A stretch of DNA of 64,000 nt, taken from positions 23,695 through 87,694 of the forward strand of contig JAFWAC010000001.1 in assembly GCA_017507805.1 (NCBI GenBank). The letters run 5' to 3'. Every line of letters begins with the position of its first letter. The first letter of the stretch is position 1. Below are positions 5,961 to 58,458 of the stretch, piece by piece. The notes beneath the pieces are model-generated. The model did not search any database and had not been told where the DNA came from. It worked only from the letters and a program-made list of their open reading frames with translations. A program made the translations under genes and the position numbers. The stretch comes from Clostridia bacterium. GTDB lineage: Bacteria > Bacillota > Clostridia > Oscillospirales > Acutalibacteraceae.

Positions 5961-5995
5961 AAAAAATCTCCTGTCTTTAGGGCAGGAGATTTTTG
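5961..5995. terminator. bidirectional-looking hairpin terminator (A-tract, 8-bp stem, T-tract)
   Basis: AAAAA-ATCTCCTG-TCTTTAGG-CAGGAGAT-TTTTT between convergent genes. Homologous to the hairpin at 6800..6838. Confidence 0.6.
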
Positions 5996-6175
5996 TTACT
6001 TATATTCAATTTTAATTTCGCCATTTTGCGCCTCAAAATCTCTTATACATTGGCGGATTAGGTATAATATCTGTCCGTTTGCCGAACGCCCCTCATATTT
6101 TGCAATATAGTGAAGCTTTCCGTGTATTTCAGGCTCTATCTCAATTCCTAAATGCTTGTTATTCTTATTTCTCAT
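5996..6175 (-). CDS. small ribbon-helix-helix (Arc/CopG-like) DNA-binding protein
   Basis: 59 aa from the ATG at 6175 (GGTGA RBS). Predicted beta-strand HLGIEIEPEIH followed by two helices. Divergent from the SLOG gene with a palindromic operator between them. Confidence 0.6.
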   Translation of the reverse strand: MRNKNNKHLGIEIEPEIHGKLHYIAKYEGRSANGQILYLIRQCIRDFEAQNGEIKIEYK

Positions 6176-6238
6176 TAATATCACCAACAAATCTTAATTT
6201 AAGTATATTTTAAGATTAATTTATGATATAATGGGGTT

Positions 6239-6261
6239 AGTATACTTAAATTAAGTATACT
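6239..6261. promoter_or_regulatory. operator-like perfect palindrome AGTATACTTAA-A-TTAAGTATACT
   Basis: 11-bp arms. Immediately downstream of a TATAAT at 6227..6232. A third half-site, CTTAATTTAAGTATA, at 6193..6207. Confidence 0.5.
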
Positions 6262-6285
6262 AAATATATAGGAAAGAGTGTTTTT

Positions 6286-6723
6286 ATGGTTTGTACTTTT
6301 TTTGGGCACCGAACGATAGATAAAGGAATAGAGCCGACCTTGCGGTCAATCCTTGTGGATTTAATAGAAAATAAAAATGTAGAAAAGTTTTATGTTGGAA
6401 ATCATGGTTCCTTTGATTCTTTAGTAATAAGAAATCTTGAAGCATTAGAAACCATTTATCCGCATATTAAATATTCAATCGTACTTGCGTATTTAACGGG
6501 AAAAAAGAGTGAATATCATTGCTTTGATTTTTCTCGTACGCTTTATCCTGACGGGCTTGAAAAAACCCCTCCAAAATTTGCGATAGATAAGCGCAACCGT
6601 TGGATGATTGAAAAATCAGATTTTGTTGTAACCTATGTAAAAAGGTTTGGCGGTGCGTATAATTACAAAGAAATTGCTGAAAAAAAGGGAAAAATTATAA
6701 TTAATATAGCAGACTTAATTTAA
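6286..6723 (+). CDS. SLOG-superfamily protein, DUF1273/YpsA-like (paralog of 57790..58224)
   Basis: 145 aa. FFGHR N-terminus, FYVGNHGSFD, YPHIKY..VLAY, AIDKRNRWMIEKSD. About 53% identical to the 57.8-kb paralog by manual alignment. Confidence 0.75.
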   Translation: MVCTFFGHRTIDKGIEPTLRSILVDLIENKNVEKFYVGNHGSFDSLVIRNLEALETIYPHIKYSIVLAYLTGKKSEYHCFDFSRTLYPDGLEKTPPKFAIDKRNRWMIEKSDFVVTYVKRFGGAYNYKEIAEKKGKIIINIADLI

Positions 6724-6733
6724 TAAAGCTTTT

Positions 6734-6799
6734 GTAGGGGCAGGCGTCCTCGACTGCCCGTCAAACGCATCTAAACCTTTTCAGACAGCCCGTCCCTAC
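6734..6799. repeat. GTAGGG...CCCTAC palindromic element, copy P1-a (right arm degenerate)
   Basis: GTAGGGGCAGGCGTCCTCGACTGCCCGT ... CAGACAGCCCGTCCCTAC. Related to the copies at 42283..42355 and 51399..51471. Confidence 0.7.
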
Positions 6800-6838
6800 A
6801 AAAAATCTCTCCCTGATAAACACAGGGAGAGATTTTTG
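6800..6838. terminator. hairpin terminator, homologous to 5961..5995
   Basis: AAAAA-ATCTCTCCCTG-ATAAACA-CAGGGAGAGAT-TTTTT, an 11-bp perfect stem. Confidence 0.6.
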
Positions 6839-6856
6839 TTATTTACATTTGCCTAT

Positions 6857-7069
6857 AAATTATAGTTTAGCGGTTCGAATGTTTTTCACAACCATTAGCT
6901 CCCTCTGATGAGGGAGCTGTCACCGCAAGGTGACTGAGGGAGAGAAAAAACAAGGATTTATCTGTGTTTTAGCCTTTTCTCTCCCTCCGAGTTTGCTCCG
7001 CAAACCCACCTCCCTCGTCAGAGGGAGGCAAGGTTTCAGCTTTCTATTTAGCGCGGCAAACTATAATTT
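6857..7069. mobile_element. MITE-like unit bounded by the AAATTATAGTTTAGCG terminal motif, carrying palindrome S-a
   Basis: AAATTATAGTTTAGCG at 6857..6872 and an imperfect inverted copy CAAACTATAATTT at 7057..7069. No coding capacity. Confidence 0.55.
6898..7028. repeat. S-element copy a: ~130-nt multi-hairpin palindromic repeat
   Basis: GCTCCCTC-TGAT-GAGGGAGC, GTCACC-GCAA-GGTGAC, long stem GAGGGAGAGAAAA/TTTTCTCTCCCTC, GTTTGC-TCC-GCAAAC, CCTCCCTC-GTCA-GAGGGAGG. Other copies at 31042..31170 and 58288..58420. Confidence 0.85.
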
Positions 7070-8970: not shown

Positions 8971-9086
8971 AAAAAATACACCTTTCCGCTTGTATGGACG
9001 GAAGGGCGCAAAAAATAAACGCACAAAACTGCCGCAAGGGTATAATAACCCCTTGTGTTCCGTACATACAAAAAAATATTTTTTTA

Positions 9087-9230
9087 CAGCATAGCGAACA
9101 CCTTTGTTCCGAAATTACTTTCGGGTTTTGTGCATCCGTTTACGACATGTCTGCCGTGGGGCATCCGCCGAATCTTTCGATGAACCCCAACCTCGTCAAC
9201 CGCTATGCCATATGTACGGTCCCGGCGCTT
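9087..9230 (-). promoter_or_regulatory. glmS ribozyme (GlcN6P-dependent self-cleaving riboswitch)
   Basis: Minus strand reads A/GCGCCGGGACC...GGTTGACGAGG...TCGAAAGATTCGGCGGATGCCCC...CGGAACAAAGG. This matches conserved glmS ribozyme core blocks in the glmS 5' UTR. Confidence 0.88.
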
Positions 9231-9324
9231 GAAATTAATTAAACGGTTTTTTATCCTTTCATTTTATTTTATGGCATATAATCCGCAAACCGAGCATTTT
9301 TTATTTTTTACTCGATTATACTAT

Positions 9325-23933: not shown

Positions 23934-24140
23934 ATGATAAAAATAAAAAAACAGACAAAAACCTTTTTAAGAAGCTTTTATATCTCCTCTGTAGTGGTTT
24001 TCTGCCTGCTTTTCGGGTTGCTTGCCGCCGCAAAGGCTTATGAAAGCATCCGCCTTATCGGCTTCGGCGAATACCGCCGCGCGGTTGAATACCGTGACGG
24101 CACCCTTTATTTGTTCGATATTTCGTTTTTTGAAAATTGA
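23934..24140 (+). CDS. hypothetical small membrane protein
   Basis: 68 aa with one TM helix (VVVFCLLFGLLAAA). AAAGGA RBS. Follows spoIIP. Confidence 0.45.
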   Translation: MIKIKKQTKTFLRSFYISSVVVFCLLFGLLAAAKAYESIRLIGFGEYRRAVEYRDGTLYLFDISFFEN

Positions 24141-24178
24141 TGAAAAAAATTTATTATGTAAATATAATAAAATCAAAC

Positions 24179-24201
24179 GGGAGGCGAAACGCCTCCCCTA
24201 C
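24179..24201 (-). terminator. short GTAGGGGA-family hairpin (H-1); probable terminator of the RHH gene
   Basis: Minus strand GTAGGGGAGGCG-TTT-CGCCTCCC followed by GTTTGATTTTAT. Homologous, in inverted orientation, to 47676..47699. Confidence 0.45.
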
Positions 24202-24257
24202 AATTTATCAAGAAAATATAATTAACATTTCGTAGGGAACGAGTTTTAAAATTTGGT

Positions 24258-24443
24258 TTATTCCGATTGACCTTTTTCCTCTTTTAAATTTGCCAAAGCA
24301 ACCCTCACTGCTTCAATAACAAAAGCAGTGAAAGTGCAGTTAGTTCCTTTTATTTCATTTTCTACCTGTTCTATAATATCATTTGGAAAGCGAATACATT
24401 TATTAGTAGTAGGTGGTTGGGACGGAATTTTAAAGCTTTTCAT
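24258..24443 (-). CDS. small ribbon-helix-helix (Arc/YlcI-like) DNA-binding protein
   Basis: 61 aa from the ATG at 24443 (GAGGTGA RBS). KCIRFPNDIIEQVE beta-strand/helix signature. The 23-aa upstream extension was rejected. Confidence 0.6.
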   Translation of the reverse strand: MKSFKIPSQPPTTNKCIRFPNDIIEQVENEIKGTNCTFTAFVIEAVRVALANLKEEKGQSE

Positions 24444-24453
24444 AAAATCACCT

Positions 24454-24489
24454 CTGCAAATATTATTGTATATCAAAAAATATTTGCAG
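24454..24489. promoter_or_regulatory. operator-like inverted repeat CTGCAAATATT-N14-AATATTTGCAG
   Basis: Perfect 11-bp arms in the divergent control region. Additional ATTGCA direct repeats at 24495..24512. Confidence 0.45.
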
Positions 24490-24569
24490 TATGCATTGCA
24501 AATGTATTGCAATCATAAAAATTTTATGTTACCATATTAAAAAAGAAAATTATAATAAAGGTAAAAAAT

Positions 24570-24971
24570 ATGATTAAAAAAATAGTGGTTGCAGGGTGCA
24601 GGGATTATCAGGATTATGAACAGGCAAAGGAATACATAGATTTCTGCATCAGTAATATAAAAAAGAAATATACCCTTGTTTTTGTGTCGGGTGGGTGTGC
24701 CGGCGCGGATATGCTCGGTGAGCGCTATGCCAGGGAAAACGGATATGAAATTGAGCGCTATCCTGCCGAATGGGAAAAATACGGCAGGTCTGCAGGACCG
24801 AAAAGAAACGAACAAATGGCAAAGGCTGCGGATTTTGTTATCTGCTTTTGGGACGGACAAAGCCGCGGCACAAAAACAATGATTGAATTTGCAAGACAAA
24901 TGGGAAAACGCGTAAAAATCAAGAAAATAAAATTAACATTCCCTACAAATAATTTATGTTTAAAACATTGA
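24570..24971 (+). CDS. SLOG-superfamily protein, DUF2493-like
   Basis: 133 aa. VVAGCRDY, VSGGCAGADMLGERYA, GPKRNEQMA, WDGQSRGTK. The last ~15 aa read through a repeat terminus and overlap the polC 3' end by 12 nt. Confidence 0.75.
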   Translation: MIKKIVVAGCRDYQDYEQAKEYIDFCISNIKKKYTLVFVSGGCAGADMLGERYARENGYEIERYPAEWEKYGRSAGPKRNEQMAKAADFVICFWDGQSRGTKTMIEFARQMGKRVKIKKIKLTFPTNNLCLKH

Positions 24972-27900
24972 AATCTGGTTTGTGTCGGGAAGGTCGTTCA
25001 TTGCGCCCAAATCCGAAAGATTTTGAATTATGGTTTTGGAGACACCTGCTTCAAGCTGGAAATCCTCACGTGAGACAAAATTACCCTTTTGGGCGGCTTC
25101 GTATATAGAGTATGCCGCCTTTTCACCGACACCGCTGAGGGCGCCGAAGGGCAGACGCATTTTGCCGTTTTCGGGTACATATTTCATCGCGTGGGATTTA
25201 TTCAAATCAATAGGTAAAACACCTATTCCTCTTGACATCATCTCATTGAAAATAAGCATATTCTCATAAACATCAAGCTCTTTTTTGGTGGCATCCTTGC
25301 CCTTTGCCTTAATATCACGGATAAACCGCTTGACAGCCTCGTGTCCCTGAATTATGGTTGGCACATCCACATCCTCGGGACGGGCGGTGAAATAGGCGCA
25401 GTAAAACTCCAGGGGCTTATGCACCTTGTACCACGCAACCCTTATTGCGGCGGTAACATAAGCCGCGGCGTGAGCCTTGGGGAACATATACTTAATTTTA
25501 TAACAACTGTTGATATACCATTCGGGTACATTAACGGCGCGCATATCGTCCTCCATTGCGCCCCATTCCTCTTTGGAAACCTTGCCTTTGGCAACAAGTC
25601 CCTTACGCACCGTTTCGGTAATCTTAAAGGCTCTGCCCTCCTCCATACCCTGATGGATAAGGTAAACCATTATGTTGTCACGCGTACCGATAACCTCCGA
25701 AATGGTGCAGGTGCCGTTTTCGATAAGGTCTTTAGCATTGCCGAGGTAAACATCGGTACCGTGGGAAAGTCCCGAAATCTGCAAAAGGTCGGAGAAATTC
25801 TTAGGCTTACAGTCCACCAGCATTCCGCGGACAAAGCTTGTACCGAATTCGGGTATACAGTATGTACCTGTGGGGGAGTCGATTTCCTCGGGTGTAACAC
25901 CCAAAGCCTCGGTAGAGGTGAAAAGACTGTAAACCGCGGGGTCGCTCATCGAAACATCACTTACGGATATTCCCGAATATTCCTCAAGATACTTGTAGGT
26001 AGTGGGGATTACATGCCCCAGCTCATCCAGCTTCAAAATGGTATCGTGGATAGAATGGAAGTCAAAATGGGTGGTAACAACATCGGAGTTGACATCGTCT
26101 GCAGGGTGCTGAACGGGGCAGAAATCGTAAATTTCCTTATCCCTCGGCACAACAATCATACCTGCAGGGTGCTGACCTGTTGTGGTCTTGACCTGTGCGC
26201 CCTCAACCAGCTTTGCCAAGCGGTTAAGCTCGGCATTGCTGAGTGTCACGCCCTTTTTCTCAGCATAAGCCTTGGCAAAGCCGAAAGCGGTTTTTTCGGC
26301 AACGGTTGAAATTGTACCTGCCTTGAAAACATTTTCGCTTCCGAACATAGTCTCGGTGTATTTTTGCACCTGTGTCTGGAATTCGTTGGAGAAGTTAAGG
26401 TCTATATCGGGCACCTTGTCGCCCTTAAAGCCCAAAAAGGTTTCAAAGGGAATGTCGTGACCGTCACGCTCCATCATTTCTCCGCATTCGGGACAAGCCT
26501 TTTCGGGCAGGTCAAAGCCCGAGCCTACAGAGCCGTCCGTGAAAAATTCGCTGTGACAGCATTTGGGGCAGACATAGTGCGGAGCTAAGGGATTAACCTC
26601 CGAAATACCTGCCATTGTGGCAACAAAAGAGGAGCCAACCGAGCCACGCGAGCCTACAAGGTAGCCGTTTTCCTCACTGTAAGCCACCAGCTTTTGCGCC
26701 GAAATATACATTATCGAGAAGCCGTTGTTGATAATTGAATTAAGCTCCTTTTCAAGCCGTTTTTCAACTATTTCGGGTACATTTTCCCCGTATTTTTTAT
26801 GTGCGTTATCCCAGCAAATGCGCCTCAGCTCATCGTCCGACCCCTCGATTACGGGGGGATAGTTTCCGTCAGGCACAGGGATAACATCGCCGTCCACCAT
26901 ATCGGCAATTTTATTTGGGTTATCAATAACAAATTCCTTTGCGCGGTCACCGAAATAATCAAAATCAGCAAGCATTTCCTCTGTGGTTTTGAAGTAAAGC
27001 GGAGCCTGATTGTCGAAATCATCAAAGCCCTGCCCTGCCATAAGGATTTTGCGGATAATTTCATCGCTCTTTTTAAGAAAATGCACATCACCCGTTGCAA
27101 CAACGGGAAGCCCAAGCTCGTCCGCCAATTCAACCACCTTGCGGTTAAAGTCCTTCAAAACCTCGTCACTTGTGACCTTGCGGAATTTATTGGGAATAAC
27201 TGCCCCCGTCTTTTTGTCCTTTTTATCGGGCAATCCCGATTCCCTTACCATAAATTGGTTGTTGCCCAAGGGCTGAATTTCAAGATAATCGTAAAAGCTT
27301 GCAATCCTTATAAGCTCCTCGTGGGGCTTTTCCTCAATGATTGCCTGAAAAAGGTCGCCCTGCTCACAGGCACTGCCGATGATAAGCCCCTCGCGCAGAG
27401 CTTCAAGCTTGCTTCTCAGGGTTATGGGCTTGCCGTGAAAATCCTTCAGGTGGGCTTCGGAAATCAGCTTGTAAAGATTTTTAAGTCCTGCAAGATTTTT
27501 AACCAATATAATCTGGTGGTGGCGAAGCTTGCCTATCTGCTTGGCGTTAAGCTCGGAAATATCGTTGGCTATATCGTCCACGAAATAGGCTTCCACACCG
27601 TAGATAACCTTAAAATCTCCGCCACCCTTGCGGATGCCCTTAACCGCGCCTGCCGCTGTGGGGTATGCCTGAACAACACCGTGGTCGGTGATGGCAACTG
27701 CCTTGTGTCCCCAGCTAAAGGCTTGGTTTATAATATCCGCCGCAGAGGAAACGGCATCCTTTGCCGACATATTTGTGTGGCAGTGAAGCTCCACACGCTT
27801 TTCGCCCTCGTAGCTGTCGGTCTCGGTATATTTCTGCAAAAGCGCCATCGCCTTTGGCTTTACGCGGAAATCCTTTTTATAATCGTCAAATTCGTAAGCA

Positions 27901-28793
27901 CCGCTGACAAGAACAAAAGCACCCTTTTTAACGGGGGCAACATCACCCGTCCGATTTTTATCAATAAACATCGAGGCGGTGAGAGAATTGGTATAATCAC
28001 TAAAGGAAAAGGTGAAAATATTACTTTCGCCGCGCTTGGTGTTAATGGTGCGCATTTCGGTCTCGAAAACCTCACCCCAACAGCAAATATCCGTGTCATC
28101 GCCCGTGACATCTATCATCTGCTTGATATTGCCCTCTATCCGTCTGCCGTAGAAAAGCTTGGGGTTGTCAAGGTAAACCACACCGTTTTGGGGCTTTTCT
28201 GCCCTTTTTTCAAACTTAATTTCGGGCTTTGGCGGCGGTGGTGCGCCCTCGCTTCTTTGGGGCTTGGCAGGCGCACTGCTAACGGTGGGCTCGGGGTCGG
28301 GAAGCACGATTTCCATATCCTCAAGCTGACCTTCAAAGCTAACCTCCGCCTCTATACCGAAGCGGCCGATGATGCATTTTGTAAAGTTTTTGAGGAAATC
28401 GGTTTCACAGATTTTTTTATAGCCGCCGTGTTTGAGGGTAATTGTGATTTTTTCACCCTCAAGGCGATAGTCCGCGCCCCCGAAATAACCGTTGAGCGCG
28501 GCATTTTTCATTTTAAGCTCTGCCGCAATATCGGCACAGGCTTCGGCGCAAAAAGCGCCCTGCCCAAAGGTAAACTCAATAAAACATTTCTCTAATTTCA
28601 GCGCCGATTTTATGGTTTGGGTAACATTAAGCTGTGTCTGGCGGTTTATGTAGCTCTCGGAAAAAATCACAGCAATAATACTGCGGTTTTCCGTATCCAA
28701 CGCGCATTTTTCAACCGCGGCATTTCCCAAATCCGTATTCTTTTCCTGTGGCACAAGCGCACCGAAAACATCTGAAAAGGTAGCCTTTGGCAT
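24960..28793 (-). CDS. polC: DNA polymerase III PolC-type catalytic subunit, lacking the internal 3'-5' exonuclease domain
   Basis: 1277 aa. OB fold. PHP motif ELHCHTNMS..ITDHG. Zn module CPKCCH..CPECG. Polymerase core. No ExoI/II/III motifs. Confidence 0.93.
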   Translation of the reverse strand: MPKATFSDVFGALVPQEKNTDLGNAAVEKCALDTENRSIIAVIFSESYINRQTQLNVTQTIKSALKLEKCFIEFTFGQGAFCAEACADIAAELKMKNAALNGYFGGADYRLEGEKITITLKHGGYKKICETDFLKNFTKCIIGRFGIEAEVSFEGQLEDMEIVLPDPEPTVSSAPAKPQRSEGAPPPPKPEIKFEKRAEKPQNGVVYLDNPKLFYGRRIEGNIKQMIDVTGDDTDICCWGEVFETEMRTINTKRGESNIFTFSFSDYTNSLTASMFIDKNRTGDVAPVKKGAFVLVSGAYEFDDYKKDFRVKPKAMALLQKYTETDSYEGEKRVELHCHTNMSAKDAVSSAADIINQAFSWGHKAVAITDHGVVQAYPTAAGAVKGIRKGGGDFKVIYGVEAYFVDDIANDISELNAKQIGKLRHHQIILVKNLAGLKNLYKLISEAHLKDFHGKPITLRSKLEALREGLIIGSACEQGDLFQAIIEEKPHEELIRIASFYDYLEIQPLGNNQFMVRESGLPDKKDKKTGAVIPNKFRKVTSDEVLKDFNRKVVELADELGLPVVATGDVHFLKKSDEIIRKILMAGQGFDDFDNQAPLYFKTTEEMLADFDYFGDRAKEFVIDNPNKIADMVDGDVIPVPDGNYPPVIEGSDDELRRICWDNAHKKYGENVPEIVEKRLEKELNSIINNGFSIMYISAQKLVAYSEENGYLVGSRGSVGSSFVATMAGISEVNPLAPHYVCPKCCHSEFFTDGSVGSGFDLPEKACPECGEMMERDGHDIPFETFLGFKGDKVPDIDLNFSNEFQTQVQKYTETMFGSENVFKAGTISTVAEKTAFGFAKAYAEKKGVTLSNAELNRLAKLVEGAQVKTTTGQHPAGMIVVPRDKEIYDFCPVQHPADDVNSDVVTTHFDFHSIHDTILKLDELGHVIPTTYKYLEEYSGISVSDVSMSDPAVYSLFTSTEALGVTPEEIDSPTGTYCIPEFGTSFVRGMLVDCKPKNFSDLLQISGLSHGTDVYLGNAKDLIENGTCTISEVIGTRDNIMVYLIHQGMEEGRAFKITETVRKGLVAKGKVSKEEWGAMEDDMRAVNVPEWYINSCYKIKYMFPKAHAAAYVTAAIRVAWYKVHKPLEFYCAYFTARPEDVDVPTIIQGHEAVKRFIRDIKAKGKDATKKELDVYENMLIFNEMMSRGIGVLPIDLNKSHAMKYVPENGKMRLPFGALSGVGEKAAYSIYEAAQKGNFVSREDFQLEAGVSKTIIQNLSDLGAMNDLPDTNQISMF

Positions 28794-30930: not shown

Positions 30931-31041
30931 CTACAAAAAGTTAATTAAAGGCTTATCGCCCCAGACTGTAGACAAAGCCTATTTTAGGTGGTTGTCTCAC
31001 TAAGGTTAAGATACGCAATTACCGAAGCGGTTTCAACATTG

Positions 31042-31170
31042 GCTCCCTCTGATGAGGGAGCTGTCACCGGAAGGTGACTGAGGGAGAGAAAAACAAAAAT
31101 TCATCGCGGTTTCACCCTTTCTCTCCCTCCGTCAAAACTTCGTTTTGCCACCTCCCTCGTCAGAGGGAGG
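31042..31170. repeat. S-element copy b
   Basis: Same module order as 6898..7028. Interior hairpins GTCACC-GGAA-GGTGAC and CAAAAC-TTC-GTTTTG. Lies between dxr and rseP. Confidence 0.85.
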
Positions 31171-31185
31171 CTGTGTTTGGCGTGT

Positions 31186-35593: not shown

Positions 35594-35883
35594 AAATTAT
35601 AGTTTAGCGGGGTGCCCCCGCGGTCATTCCGCCTTTTTATTCTGCAAAATTACAACACGATACCCCGATGGCGTAAACACATATAAATTATAGTAGGGGA
35701 CGATGGGTCTCGTTGCGGCTCGGTCACTTTTTGGCTCTGACAGTCCACCGGACTGTCATTCACTACCAAAAAGCCGCTTCGCTACCCACATCGTCCCGCT
35801 TGGTTTCTGCAAATTCTGGCGGGACGATGTGGGCATCGTCCCCTACAAAATGTCAATTTAATTAGTGCGCTAAACTATAATTT
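35594..35883. mobile_element. composite MITE-like mosaic bounded by perfect 16-nt inverted termini
   Basis: AAATTATAGTTTAGCG at 35594..35609 and CGCTAAACTATAATTT at 35868..35883. The interior holds module M (35607..35692, ending in AAATTATAGT) and palindrome P2-a. Confidence 0.7.
35693..35846. repeat. GTAGGGGAC...GTCCCCTAC palindrome P2-a, left arm split by a 79-nt nested palindromic insertion (35706..35784)
   Basis: Apart from the insertion, the arms match the perfect copy at 57402..57476. The loop is in the inverted orientation with one base difference. Confidence 0.8.
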
Positions 35884-40630: not shown

Positions 40631-40853
40631 TAAAAAAATAACGCCCTGAAAAAATTTCAGGACGAATAAAAATCCGTGGTACCACCCGATTTCGGGAAAA
40701 TCCCGCACTCAAAACCCGTAACGAGGGTGACGGCAATCCCTTTCGGGCGCAGCTGAGGAAAGAGCTTCACAGGGCTTTAAAGGTGGATTTTCACCGGCCA
40801 TCCACTCTCTTGACACTTAAAACCGAGCTACTTATTTTCCCTTATCGCTTTTA
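40631..40853 (-). promoter_or_regulatory. T-box leader (tRNA-sensing riboswitch), probable Ala (GCU) specifier
   Basis: Minus strand has AGTA S-turn, AGAGAG, GGTGAAAA distal loop, T-box sequence AATCGGGTGGTACCACGG and terminator CGTCCTGAAATTTTTTCAGGGCG + T-run. GAA-GCU-C lies in the specifier position (codon at 40765..40763). Confidence 0.8.
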
Positions 40854-40860
40854 CAAATTA

Positions 40861-41289: not shown

Positions 41290-41310
41290 TATAAATAAAT
41301 ATCAAAATTT

Positions 41311-41516
41311 TTGTCCTGCGCTGTTCGCGGACCGTGACTTATATAACCCTACAACCTTTTTAAAAGGGACCACAGCTCGTACGGCGGGCTTGCAGACCTC
41401 CCGCGGCGGTGCCGAGTTCGGAAGAAGGGAGCGCGAAGCCGTACGGCCGGTACCCACCTGGCTTACGCTAGGTTATCTTAAGCACATTACGGCAGCGCGG
41501 GACACTCGTGTTTTTT
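41311..41516 (+). ncRNA. ffs: signal recognition particle RNA (SRP/scRNA)
   Basis: Closing helix GTCCTGCGCTG / CAGCGCGGGAC. Domain IV-like GAGTTC-GGAA-GAAGGGAGCGC resembles CAGGUCC-GGAA-GGAAGCAGC. Long helix CGTACGGC../..GCCGTACG. T-run at the 3' end. Confidence 0.7.
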
Positions 41517-42282: not shown

Positions 42283-42355
42283 GTAGGGACAGACGTCCCC
42301 GACTGTCCGTTGATTCAGATGTGTTTTACGGACAGTCGGGGATGCCTGTCCCTAC
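42283..42355. repeat. GTAGGG...CCCTAC palindrome P1-b (27-bp arms, ~19-nt loop)
   Basis: GTAGGGACAGACGTCCCCGACTGTCCG ... CGGACAGTCGGGGATGCCTGTCCCTAC between convergent trmO and the DD-carboxypeptidase gene. Confidence 0.85.
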
Positions 42356-47577: not shown

Positions 47578-47675
47578 GAATTATAGTTTATGTGTCTGAA
47601 CGGATAGTAGCATCTAATGCCTCCCTTGCCTAAAGGGTTTGTGCTGTCAATTAACACCCCGCTAAACTATAATTT
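47578..47675. mobile_element. 98-bp MITE-like unit with AATTATAGTTTA / CGCTAAACTATAATTT termini
   Basis: GAATTATAGTTTATG at 47578..47592 and CGCTAAACTATAATTT at 47660..47675. The interior contains an S-element flank remnant (CCTCCCTTGCCTAAAGGGTTTGTGC). Confidence 0.6.
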
Positions 47676-47699
47676 GTAGAGGAGGCGTTTCGCCTCCCC
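47676..47699 (+). repeat. short GTAG(A/G)GGA-family hairpin H-2
   Basis: GTAGAGGAGGCG-TTT-CGCCTCCCC. Inverted homolog of 24179..24201, including the flank AAAATCAAA. Confidence 0.6.
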
Positions 47700-47740
47700 T
47701 TTGATTTTACGATATTTTGCTACAAGGTATATATGTATCA

Positions 47741-51361: not shown

Positions 51362-51495
51362 AAAATATAGTTTGATAAACAAATCAAAATGATATATCGT
51401 AGGGGCATGCGTCCCCGAACGCCCGTTAGTTACGATGAATTTTGCGGACAGTCGAGGACACCTGTCCCTACAAATAATCCCAATAAACTATAATT
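51362..51495. mobile_element. MITE-like unit (AAAATATAGTTTG ... AAACTATAATT) carrying palindrome P1-c (51399..51471)
   Basis: Degenerate terminal motifs at 51362..51374 and 51485..51495. The interior is GTAGGGGCATGCGTCCCCGAACGCCCGT ... GCGGACAGTCGAGGACACCTGTCCCTAC. Confidence 0.6.
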
Positions 51496-57326: not shown

Positions 57327-57501
57327 AAATTGCAACATGATACCACGATGGTGTGAACATATATAAATTATAGTTTAGCGCACTAATTAAATTGACATTT
57401 TGTAGGGGACGATGCCCACATCGTCCCGCCAGAATTTGCAGAAACCAAACGGGACGATGTGGGCATCGTCCCCTACGAACAACCCCAATAAACTATAATT
57501 T
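57327..57501. mobile_element. composite repeat: partial module M + AAATTATAGTTTAGCG (57365..57380) + perfect P2-b palindrome + AAACTATAATTT (57490..57501)
   Basis: 57365..57401 is the exact reverse complement of 35847..35883. 57327..57364 matches module M. Confidence 0.75.
57402..57476. repeat. P2-b: perfect 27-bp-arm palindrome GTAGGGGACGATGCCCACATCGTCCCG-N21-CGGGACGATGTGGGCATCGTCCCCTAC
   Basis: The arms are exact reverse complements. The loop CCAGAATTTGCAGAAACCAAA is the reverse complement, with one base difference, of the loop at 35799..35819. Confidence 0.9.
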
Positions 57502-58230: not shown

Positions 58231-58458
58231 AAAGGGCTGTCTAACAAAGGTTAAAATGCACAAATTAACGGAGTAGCTTCACCACCGGCTCCCTCTGACG
58301 AGGGAGCTGTCGAGTGAAACGAGACTGAGGGAGAGAAAAAACTACACTAATTGTAGAAATTTCACTTTTTCTCTCCCTCCGTCACGGCCACACCGTGCCA
58401 CCTCCCTCGTCAGAGGGAGGCAGGGTTTGTGCACAAACCTTTAATGAGACAGCCCTTT
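58231..58458. repeat. 228-nt compound palindrome filling the SLOG-3/symporter intergenic region; core is S-element copy c (58288..58420)
   Basis: Outer arms AAAGGGCTGTCTAACAAAGGTTAAAATGCACAAA (58231..58264) and TTTGTGCACAAACCTTTAATGAGACAGCCCTTT (58426..58458) enclose S-c. Confidence 0.8.

Follow-up and report, generated by a model that had tools for sequence, protein, structure and literature searches.

The spacer between spoIIP and polC in the DNA analysed here, a 64-kb stretch of a Clostridia contig (hereafter the window, to which all coordinates refer), raises the question of what the pair of small genes lodged in it represents, where the unit that they form begins and ends, and how it may have come to be there. 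The islet is located between a small open reading frame (ORF) linked to spoIIP and the polC gene, and consists of two divergent genes with a shared control region, one encoding a 61-amino acid (aa) protein and the other a protein of the SLOG superfamily, read as 133 aa. An earlier note on this DNA had described it as an apparently recent insertion ended by the octamers GTAGGGAA and TTCCCTAC, and as a possible cargo-carrying relative of the GTAGGG...CCCTAC palindromes scattered through the window. The explanation that we favour, with a probability of about 60%, is that of a self-regulated two-gene accessory cassette, the repeat at its junctions being a recombination scar left either by Campbell-style integration or by the collapse of a tandem array. 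The description of a discrete, AT-richer two-gene islet with a common control region was borne out by its GC content (35.7% in the cassette versus 45% in the window; 42% in the SLOG gene alone), and the positions of both ORFs were confirmed by direct reading and by the ORF list (Table 1).

The SLOG protein and its repeated 3' end

The plus-strand ORF encodes a DUF2493/YAcAr SLOG protein, with a DprA/LOG-like Rossmannoid domain of 120 aa. The SLOG assignment, already made from the sequence, was supported by hidden Markov model (HMM) and structure searches. The protein matched PF10686 at residues 4-71 with 50.9 bits (Pfam gathering cut-off, 28.2) and phrog_289 with E = 4.1e-31, and the alignment-based AlphaFold2 (AF2) model reached a pLDDT of 92.1 for residues 1-120, residues 121-133 forming a disordered tail. 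All the top folds retrieved with this model by Foldseek were from the SLOG superfamily (ShosA, 3e-5; DprA, 1e-4; the SLOG domain of ThsA, 1.9e-4; TM1055 and LOG). No relative was found by sequence search of the PDB. The motifs SGGxxGAD...GE and WDGxSxGT were conserved in the alignment of homologues. We take PF10686/DUF2493 to be the class labelled YAcAr ("YspA, cpYpsA-related"), within a classification of the SLOG family that reportedly stems from Burroughs et al. in 2015.

Members of this family were found in 1013 phage records and 175 metagenomic viral contigs, where they go under the names "DprA-like DNA processing chain A", "GTP-binding domain" or DUF2493. Bacillus phage pW4 has the order helicase, primase, SLOG and RecB exonuclease, and in mycobacteriophage Orange the SLOG gene lies between DnaB/MazG and endonuclease VII/primase. 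Two further phage contexts were uninformative, so that a replication or recombination setting was seen in 2/4 phage regions inspected, to which one helicase fusion can be added: HelB of ICP1 is an SF1B helicase fused to DUF2493 (bioRxiv 10.1101/671271). By analogy, the SLOG domain of the window may bind nucleotide or single-stranded DNA in a setting of DNA transactions. It shares with the DUF2493/YAcAr family an above-cut-off HMM match, the Rossmannoid SLOG fold, a standalone length of ~120 aa and the conserved motifs. However, the known examples are mostly phage replication or recombination genes or helicase fusions, whereas this one is chromosomal, has its own divergent regulator and carries a read-through tail. 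DUF2493/YAcAr proteins are among the commoner uncharacterised "DprA-like" proteins of phages, and the two-gene unit offers a tractable handle on SLOG function.

The native SLOG body corresponds to codons 1-120 (24570-24929). The stop codon that followed it has been lost and is now AAA (24930-24932), the ORF ending at a TGA at 24969-24971. In 18 of the 39 aligned homologues the last residue is the one that aligns with I120; the most frequent length in the family is 120 aa, and the typical end is IKxI-stop. The read-through tail proposed earlier does run into the end of polC, with a length of 13 aa beyond the commonest family end instead of ~15 aa; it overlaps the last four codons of polC, and the 12-nt overlap with the polC stop (24960..24971) was confirmed. 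As a consequence for annotation, the 133-aa product is the read-through of a 120-aa protein.

The end of the SLOG gene is present twice at this locus, as a direct repeat of 23 nt, ATCAAGAAAATA[T/A]AATTAACATT, with 22/23 identical positions. The repeat is made up of the last four codons of the SLOG gene, the stop codon and 8 nt; in the SLOG frame the left copy reads I-K-K-I-stop (TAA) and the right copy reads I-K-K-I-K-L-T (AAA). The two copies were read as the gene's own end because a family-typical C-terminus and a stop codon match, and the T/A difference in the right copy therefore accounts for the lost native stop and for the 13-aa tail overlapping polC. Native SLOG 3' ends at homologous loci (designated by L-numbers, which refer to loci of other genomes or metagenomic contigs) resemble the first 15 nt of the left copy: GTTAAGAAAATATAA in L046 (13/15) and ATCAAACAAATATAA in L007 (12/15). 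The possibility that the 23-mer is a target-site duplication was ruled out, since it encodes this family-typical C-terminus and stop. Only these two sites of the window contain the 23-nt motif, even when three mismatches are allowed (0.01 copies expected). When the whole window was scanned for repeats spaced 300-2000 bp apart, just three pairs reached at least 19/21; two of them bracket the two SLOG islets of the window and the third is a repeat inside gyrA. The 10-nt direct repeat AATTAACATT reported before at 24220..24229 and 24931..24940 was correctly placed, and proved to be part of the 23-nt repeat with its one mismatch. Hence, the real boundary of the cassette is the 23-nt direct repeat derived from the SLOG 3' end, not the octamers. 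If this repeat-bounded reading is true, the empty junction would be CGCCTCCCCTACAATTT + 23-mer + CCCTACAAATAATTTATG, and the junction of a circular or tandem form would be GGGAAAACGCGTAAAA + 23-mer + TCGTAGGGAACGAG.

The small regulator and the cassette family

The 61-aa protein encoded by the minus strand matched NF041551 (YlcI/YnfO) at residues 13-51 with 33.9 bits, the NCBIfam cut-off being 30, and phrog_949 with E = 1.2e-9. It has 1829 homologues, which among the matches listed were 77-95% identical. The YlcI/YnfO family is named for E. coli prophage (DLP12/Qin) genes; we know of no function for it, and from its Pfam clan we take it to belong to the ribbon-helix-helix (RHH) group. The window protein itself likely has an RHH fold, as judged from conserved residues that are spaced like strand-helix-helix. 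This spacing, the above-cut-off family score and the operator-like inverted repeat in front of the gene are shared with the YlcI/YnfO family and with Arc/CopG RHH repressors, from which the protein differs in having no Pfam RHH match and a poor fold prediction. The Pfam scan gave no match, RHH models included, and DUF3950 matched 3/28 homologues with E = 0.029 or worse. The AF2 monomer had two helices, no strand and a pLDDT of 66.8, and Foldseek found no match with this poor model. In the PDB profile search CopG (9kkd_A) appeared only at E = 2.1, and hhalign against the CopG-like partner protein mentioned below gave E = 0.1, both values being non-significant.

The 126-nt spacer between the two genes (19.8% GC) contains the control elements that had been described, and these were confirmed: a perfect inverted repeat, CTGCAAATATT-N14-AATATTTGCAG, at 24454-24489, and, at intervals of 11-12 nt, the three TTGCA(A/G) sites 24484, 24496 and 24507. 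A promoter-like site (TTACCA-16-TATAAT) was found by promoter scan at 24529-24556, ahead of the SLOG gene. The control region is conserved at every occurrence of the small gene: over 24450-24512, most columns are identical both in L038, which has a linked SLOG gene, and in L033/L036, which have the small gene with no SLOG linked to it. The small protein would bind the repeats of the control region, repress its own gene and keep the SLOG gene tightly controlled.

A YlcI-like gene 90% identical to that of the window, with matching upstream control sequence and no SLOG gene, was observed in L033-L037, L212 and L213, where its neighbours are a gene for a zinc-ribbon protein on one side and a PepSY gene on the other. 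Since the YlcI-like regulator occurs elsewhere without SLOG and together with its upstream region, it constitutes a separable module.

"Small regulator + YAcAr SLOG" pairs make up a large family in Oscillospirales, of which the cassette of the window is a member. The nearest SLOG homologue is 76% identical at the aa level and the others 53-76%, and almost all of them are transcribed divergently from a small gene for a DNA-binding protein, the type of which varies. The partners seen, at least seven different regulators, were two HTH_26 types, four distinct HTH_3/HTH_19 XRE proteins, a 48-aa CopG-like protein and the YlcI-like protein. Cassettes were located between rpoC and the L7Ae-rpsL-rpsG-fusA cluster, between thrS and lexA, and between lgt and the diacylglycerol kinase gene. 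Because homologous pairs sit at such unrelated loci, the pair behaves as an insertable cassette, which agrees with the insertion character ascribed to it earlier. Flanking repeats are recurrent, not universal, in this family. In a boundary-repeat test the strong cases scored 19/20, 18/20, 20/20 and 20/20, while the best of 396 random placements reached 17/20, and the cassette in L046 lies between copies of a 57-nt repeat corresponding to the SLOG stop plus a palindromic terminator.

Some of the homologous loci have a more complex structure. In L092 (1541-2857; also in L095), two regulator + SLOG cassettes are arranged in tandem with 9 nt between the first SLOG stop and the second regulator stop; the SLOG copies are 96-99% identical and the regulators differ, one being of XRE type and frameshifted and the other of HTH_26 type. 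In L005 (4292-5372) an extra HTH_26 gene is followed by ~30 nt of a SLOG 5' end, as a relic, and then by a complete HTH_19 + SLOG pair, the unit being flanked by a gapped direct repeat of ~48 nt. The arrangement resembles a cassette replacement under way. The window itself contains another islet (islet 1, 5963-6849) with the same architecture as that at the spoIIP-polC locus. It consists of an Arc-like small ORF (5996-6190, minus strand; phrog_582, E = 9e-4) and a SLOG ORF (6286-6723, plus strand) with a weak, YpsA-like match to PF06908 (E = 0.0033, below cut-off). A GTAGGG palindrome (6734-6799) starts 10 nt past the SLOG stop, and a direct repeat of ~45 nt, composed of a terminator-like hairpin and TTTTTGTTAYTTAYATT, encloses the islet, its left copy overlapping the stop of the small gene.

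GTAG tags and palindromes around the cassette

The octamers GTAGGGAA (24232..24239) and TTCCCTAC (24939..24946) exist as described, as real, inverted and outward-facing GTAG tags. Nevertheless, the earlier view of them as the termini of the palindrome family did not stand. The octamer is present only at these two sites of the window (2 observed versus 1.67 expected), and the palindromes, which begin with GTAGGGGC, GTAGGGAC or GTAGGGGA, share just GTAGGG plus a purine. An inverted repeat of at least 8 nt in the cassette geometry was obtained in 10.6% of 3000 random placements and, because of this, the octamer repeat alone is not significant. The stem of a repetitive extragenic palindromic (REP) element is missing at both ends: fold z-scores beside the tags were -0.14 (24225-24265) and +0.32 (24915-24960), whereas the palindromes at 42283 and 57402 reached -9.3 and -13.7. 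Other copies of the cassette are not flanked by the octamers. Both are absent in L038-L042, whose cassette is 74% identical in nucleotide sequence across both genes and spacer, the left one is absent in L211 (~83% column identity in the window alignment, and with the closest small protein, 95% aa), and the cassettes of L005, L007 and L008 lack these termini as well. Relatives of the cassette without these ends are an outcome that the earlier note had itself named as refuting its proposal. The claim that the cassette is a cargo-carrying relative of the palindromes is therefore unsupported, there being no stem, no shared octamer and no such termini in related cassettes. The crowding of three GTAGGG/CCCTAC tags into 750 bp is not accidental, and we read GTAGGGAA and TTCCCTAC, like the 13-mer CCCTACAAATAAT at the right end, as debris of REP tags in a REP-prone spacer, not as transposon ends. 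An insertion of the cassette into the loop of an older palindrome was also ruled out, since the sequences adjacent to the tags are AT-rich and non-complementary.

The palindromes of the window are GTAG-tagged REP dimers of 66-75 nt with GTAG outside (6734-6799, 42283-42355, 51399-51471 and 57402-57476), together with an interrupted copy at 35693-35846, and the two best-preserved ones have folding energies of -29 and -37 kcal/mol, with z-scores of -9 and -14. They lie mostly between convergent genes. No match to the pattern GTAGGG-N4-30-CCCTAC was found in the window, since the palindrome arms are longer than this pattern allows. As GTAG-outside dimers, the palindromes fit the known GTAG-REP class, with its REP dimers, REPINs and RAYT transposases (PMC3733652, PMC3337134). 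The islet lies among such tags, but its ends carry the 6-8-nt tag alone, with no REP stem, and other cassette copies have no tags. The survey of GTAG REPs (PMC3733652) makes no mention of Firmicutes or Clostridia.

The hairpin reported just outside the cassette, at 24179..24201, was confirmed as the core of a mini-REP, which has a second copy in the window (47669-47709, 93% identical), is conserved at the equivalent site in L207 and is itself bracketed by a 21-nt repeat. The terminator scan gave a single hit, which lies past the end of the small ORF and consists of 24197..24179 on the minus strand and a T-run. This indicates that the mini-REP acts as the terminator of the small minus-strand gene. 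All short-read (Logan) contigs of the host species and of the relative with a 91% identical SpoIIP break at the mini-REP (L002-L004, L044, L045 and L207), which makes it difficult for public assemblies to bridge the locus.

Origin and surroundings of the cassette

In the explanation favoured here, a ~0.7-kb cassette with its own promoters sits in the repeat-rich spacer between the small ORF linked to spoIIP and polC. A circular or tandem copy of the cassette would have integrated Campbell-style at a chromosomal site resembling the motif or, alternatively, a tandem array of cassettes would have collapsed and left the 23-nt repeat behind. The left repeat copy would then retain the TAA, and the functional gene would have gained AAA and with it the 13-aa tail over the end of polC. 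Integron cassettes and att-flanked elements are comparable in several respects, namely a unit of 0.65-0.85 kb, tandem arrays, a repeat copy at the 3' end of a gene and no internal recombinase. They differ from the present case, which lacks attC-type core sites and a neighbouring integrase, and in which two divergent genes have their own promoters. To our knowledge, integrons and integron-type cassettes are not known in Firmicutes.

The host and its relatives bear on this explanation. Nine contigs carry an identical SLOG and, among the matches listed, all of them place it at the spoIIP-polC locus. Scanning GTDB with SpoIIP retrieved 20 relatives (Acutalibacteraceae and allies, 41-75% identity), mostly with the order dnaA-gpr-spoIIP-small ORF, and an exact SpoIIP look-up listed contigs that were all either occupied or broken at the hairpin. 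The metagenomic relative L207, with a SpoIIP 91% identical, keeps the small ORF and the hairpin, at which its contig ends (...CCCCTAC). No SLOG of 77-99% identity was present in the protein collection that includes the sample of L207, which indirectly suggests that this organism has no cassette. In clustering at 90%, PolC, SLOG and the small protein each stand alone in their cluster. The idea of a recent insertion is weakly supported, the repeat being intact at 22/23 positions and the nearest SLOG homologue being 76% identical.

Several observations weigh against the favoured explanation. The empty site was not recovered: the 20 GTDB relatives have neither polC after the small ORF nor the cassette there and, because of this, we infer the insertion at the spoIIP-polC locus rather than show it. 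A diverged copy of the repeat motif precedes the hairpin of L207, where no SLOG gene fits, and the motif may be chromosomal or REP-associated rather than purely a cassette scar. Between the repeats the ORF list contains only two genes and no recombinase, and the repeat sequences differ between genomes (islet 1, L046 and L005); there is hence no conserved att site. At a looser threshold (at least 17 nt and at least 85%), repeats were found around 11/86 controls and 7/61 SLOG genes; since the controls are equally repeat-rich at this threshold, the general claim of flanking repeats rests on the few strong cases. The RHH fold of the 61-aa protein, in turn, was not demonstrated by the AF2, PDB profile, Foldseek, Pfam-model or hhalign searches.

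The gene pair might instead be an old resident of the lineage, with the truncated motif copy, both copies of the 23-nt repeat and the solitary tags all arising from local REP-associated reiteration around the mini-REP. The motif is indeed found ahead of the hairpin in L207 too, as the full-length equivalent of the truncated copy in the window (27/31 match to 24202-24232; none of 2000 shuffles was as good), the mini-REP is bracketed by the 21-nt repeat, and all host-species contigs among the matches listed have the cassette. We nevertheless consider this unlikely in view of the missing 77-99% identical SLOG, despite the sample of the 91%-SpoIIP relative being in the database, the presence of this cassette type at unrelated loci elsewhere, the lower GC of the cassette and a gene order that varies among relatives past the small ORF. 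REP elements could also have taken a more active part: the 715-bp GTAGGGAA...TTCCCTAC unit would be a head-to-head REP dimer with DNA between its partners, mobilised in trans by a RAYT-like enzyme. Insertion of DNA between REP dimer partners has been described (PMC3733652). In addition to the orientation of the tags, this model could draw on the occurrence of at least three GTAGGG/CCCTAC tags within ~750 bp, the sole such case among 1264 windows of 800 nt, on the 13-mer CCCTACAAATAAT at 24941, identical to the end and flank of the palindrome at 51466-51478, on the likeness of GTAGGGAACGA to GTAGGGGACGA of the palindrome copy at 57402, and on the full palindrome next to the SLOG stop of islet 1. 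The closeness of REPs to SLOG 3' ends is, however, to be expected, because REPs here generally lie between convergent genes. The complementarity ends at 8 nt, a length reached by chance as stated above, the stem is missing, the octamer is found nowhere else in the 64 kb, related cassettes have no such termini, and the 23-nt repeat and the stop codon in its left copy are left unexplained, all of which makes the model very improbable.

Phage ancestry deserves the least credence of the alternatives. The pair would in that case be the remnant of a prophage or integrative element, an immunity-type repressor and the first early gene, after deletion of the rest. Both proteins match phage families (phrog_289 and phrog_949), YlcI/YnfO takes its name from E. 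coli prophage genes, the divergent layout is that of a repressor and an early gene, and the flanking direct repeat recalls attL/attR. But the minimal two-gene unit recurs at many loci with varied regulators and without further phage genes, tandem cassettes exist, and the repeat is the end of the SLOG gene, not of a host gene or tRNA. With regard to function, the SLOG protein may possibly act in defence or in the manner of a toxin. That the pair forms a toxin-antitoxin-like or abortive-infection module, with the SLOG as growth-inhibiting effector or as sensor or degrader of a nucleotide signal and the small protein as transcriptional brake, appears rather improbable. Cells that overproduce YpsA, a SLOG protein, fail to divide (PMC6459960), and degradation of cADPR-type signals has been put forward as a role of viral SLOGs (PMC9503650). 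Like type II toxin-antitoxin and ShosTA systems, the cassette has two small genes and swaps HTH/RHH partners as antitoxins do, one partner type matches the CopG_antitoxin model, and the nearest fold is ShosA of the ShosTA defence system, with a weak, sub-threshold PADLOC match (ShosA, E = 0.0069). In contrast to a co-transcribed operon, though, the genes are divergent here and at the homologous loci examined, the partner has no effector domain, neither a phosphoribosyltransferase (PRTase) nor another toxin partner is present, no defence model matched significantly, and the annotated phage contexts point to DNA replication and recombination (2/4 regions, plus the helicase fusion).

A more general proposal can be made very tentatively, and we hold it to be doubtful: small repressor + YAcAr SLOG pairs would constitute an undescribed class of Clostridia mini-cassettes that move or multiply as circular or tandem units of 0.65-0.85 kb through recombination at their own 3' ends or terminators, leaving direct repeats of 20-60 nt without a linked recombinase. 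The DprA-like SLOG may promote RecA-dependent integration, and REP tags may be preferred entry points. Both protein families are known, and the apparent novelty lies in a chromosomal cassette of the "swappable repressor + YAcAr SLOG" type that can stand in tandem and has flanking repeats derived from its end; no description of a swappable-repressor SLOG cassette was found in a literature search on DUF2493. This chromosomal SLOG branch of gut and rumen Oscillospirales, with a swappable private repressor, core-gene sites such as rpoC/rpsL and spoIIP/polC, and tandem copies or end-scars, may reveal a route of small-cassette traffic in Firmicutes.

The chromosomal context of the islet is formed by dnaN, dnaA, gpr, spoIIP and the conserved 68-aa membrane ORF on the left, and by polC, ispG and rseP on the right (Table 1). 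The 68-aa ORF downstream of spoIIP was conserved by tblastn in 17/20 loci of the GTDB relatives and in L207. It had no curated-family match, is skipped by gene callers in public contigs, and its exact look-up returned no record.

Table 1. Coordinates of the cassette, its repeats and tags, and the adjacent chromosomal genes
Feature	Position	Strand	Basis or remark
68-aa small membrane-protein ORF	23934..24140	+	ORF list; downstream of spoIIP; left chromosomal neighbour
Truncated third copy of repeat motif (c1), AATTTATTATGTAAATATAAT	24148..24168	+	Ahead of mini-hairpin; 83% identity to 24202-24225 as a direct repeat
Mini-REP, GC-rich hairpin GGGAGGCG-AAA-CGCCTCCC followed by CTAC tag	24168..24208	.	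Fold z = -4.75; hairpin 24179..24201
Left copy of direct repeat (DR-L), ATCAAGAAAATATAATTAACATT	24207..24229	+	Copy of SLOG 3' end; in-frame TAA kept at 24219-24221
Solitary REP-type tag GTAGGGAA, no hairpin body	24232..24239	+	Absent at equivalent position in L038 and L211
61-aa YlcI/YnfO-family ORF, putative RHH repressor	24258..24443	-	ORF list, NF041551, phrog_949
Divergent control region	24444..24569	.	Direct reading, promoter scan
DUF2493/YAcAr SLOG ORF, 133 aa	24570..24971	+	ORF list, PF10686, AF2, Foldseek
Right copy of direct repeat (DR-R), ATCAAGAAAATAAAATTAACATT	24918..24940	+	Inside SLOG 3' end, codons 117-124
Tag TTCCCTAC followed by AAATAAT, with REP tail-like 13-mer CCCTACAAATAAT, no hairpin	24939..24953	+	Fold z = 0.3
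polC (PolC-type DNA polymerase III)	24960..28793	-	ORF list; right chromosomal neighbour

Other repeats and structured RNAs were observed in the window. The 16-mer AAATTATAGTTTAGCG occurs in 7 copies (6857, 7054, 35594, 35868, 47660, 57365 and 57486), versus 0.07 expected, and most of them form inverted pairs bracketing the palindromes at 35693 and 57402 and the structured repeat at 6890-7036, which suggests larger nested inverted-repeat elements. The latter repeat belongs to a complex palindromic type of ~150 nt with three copies (6890-7036, 31035-31177 and 58289-58419; GCTCCCTCTGATGAGGGAGC ... TTTCTCTCCCTCCG ... CCTCCCTCGTCAGAGGGAGG), whose sub-hairpins vary between copies while the pairing is kept, and which no Rfam family matches. 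The Rfam scan of the islet found nothing at or near gathering scores. In the whole window, the same scan identified the glmS ribozyme upstream of glmS (9085-9240, minus strand), a T-box leader (40655-40854, minus strand) and 6S RNA (41310-41507, plus strand).

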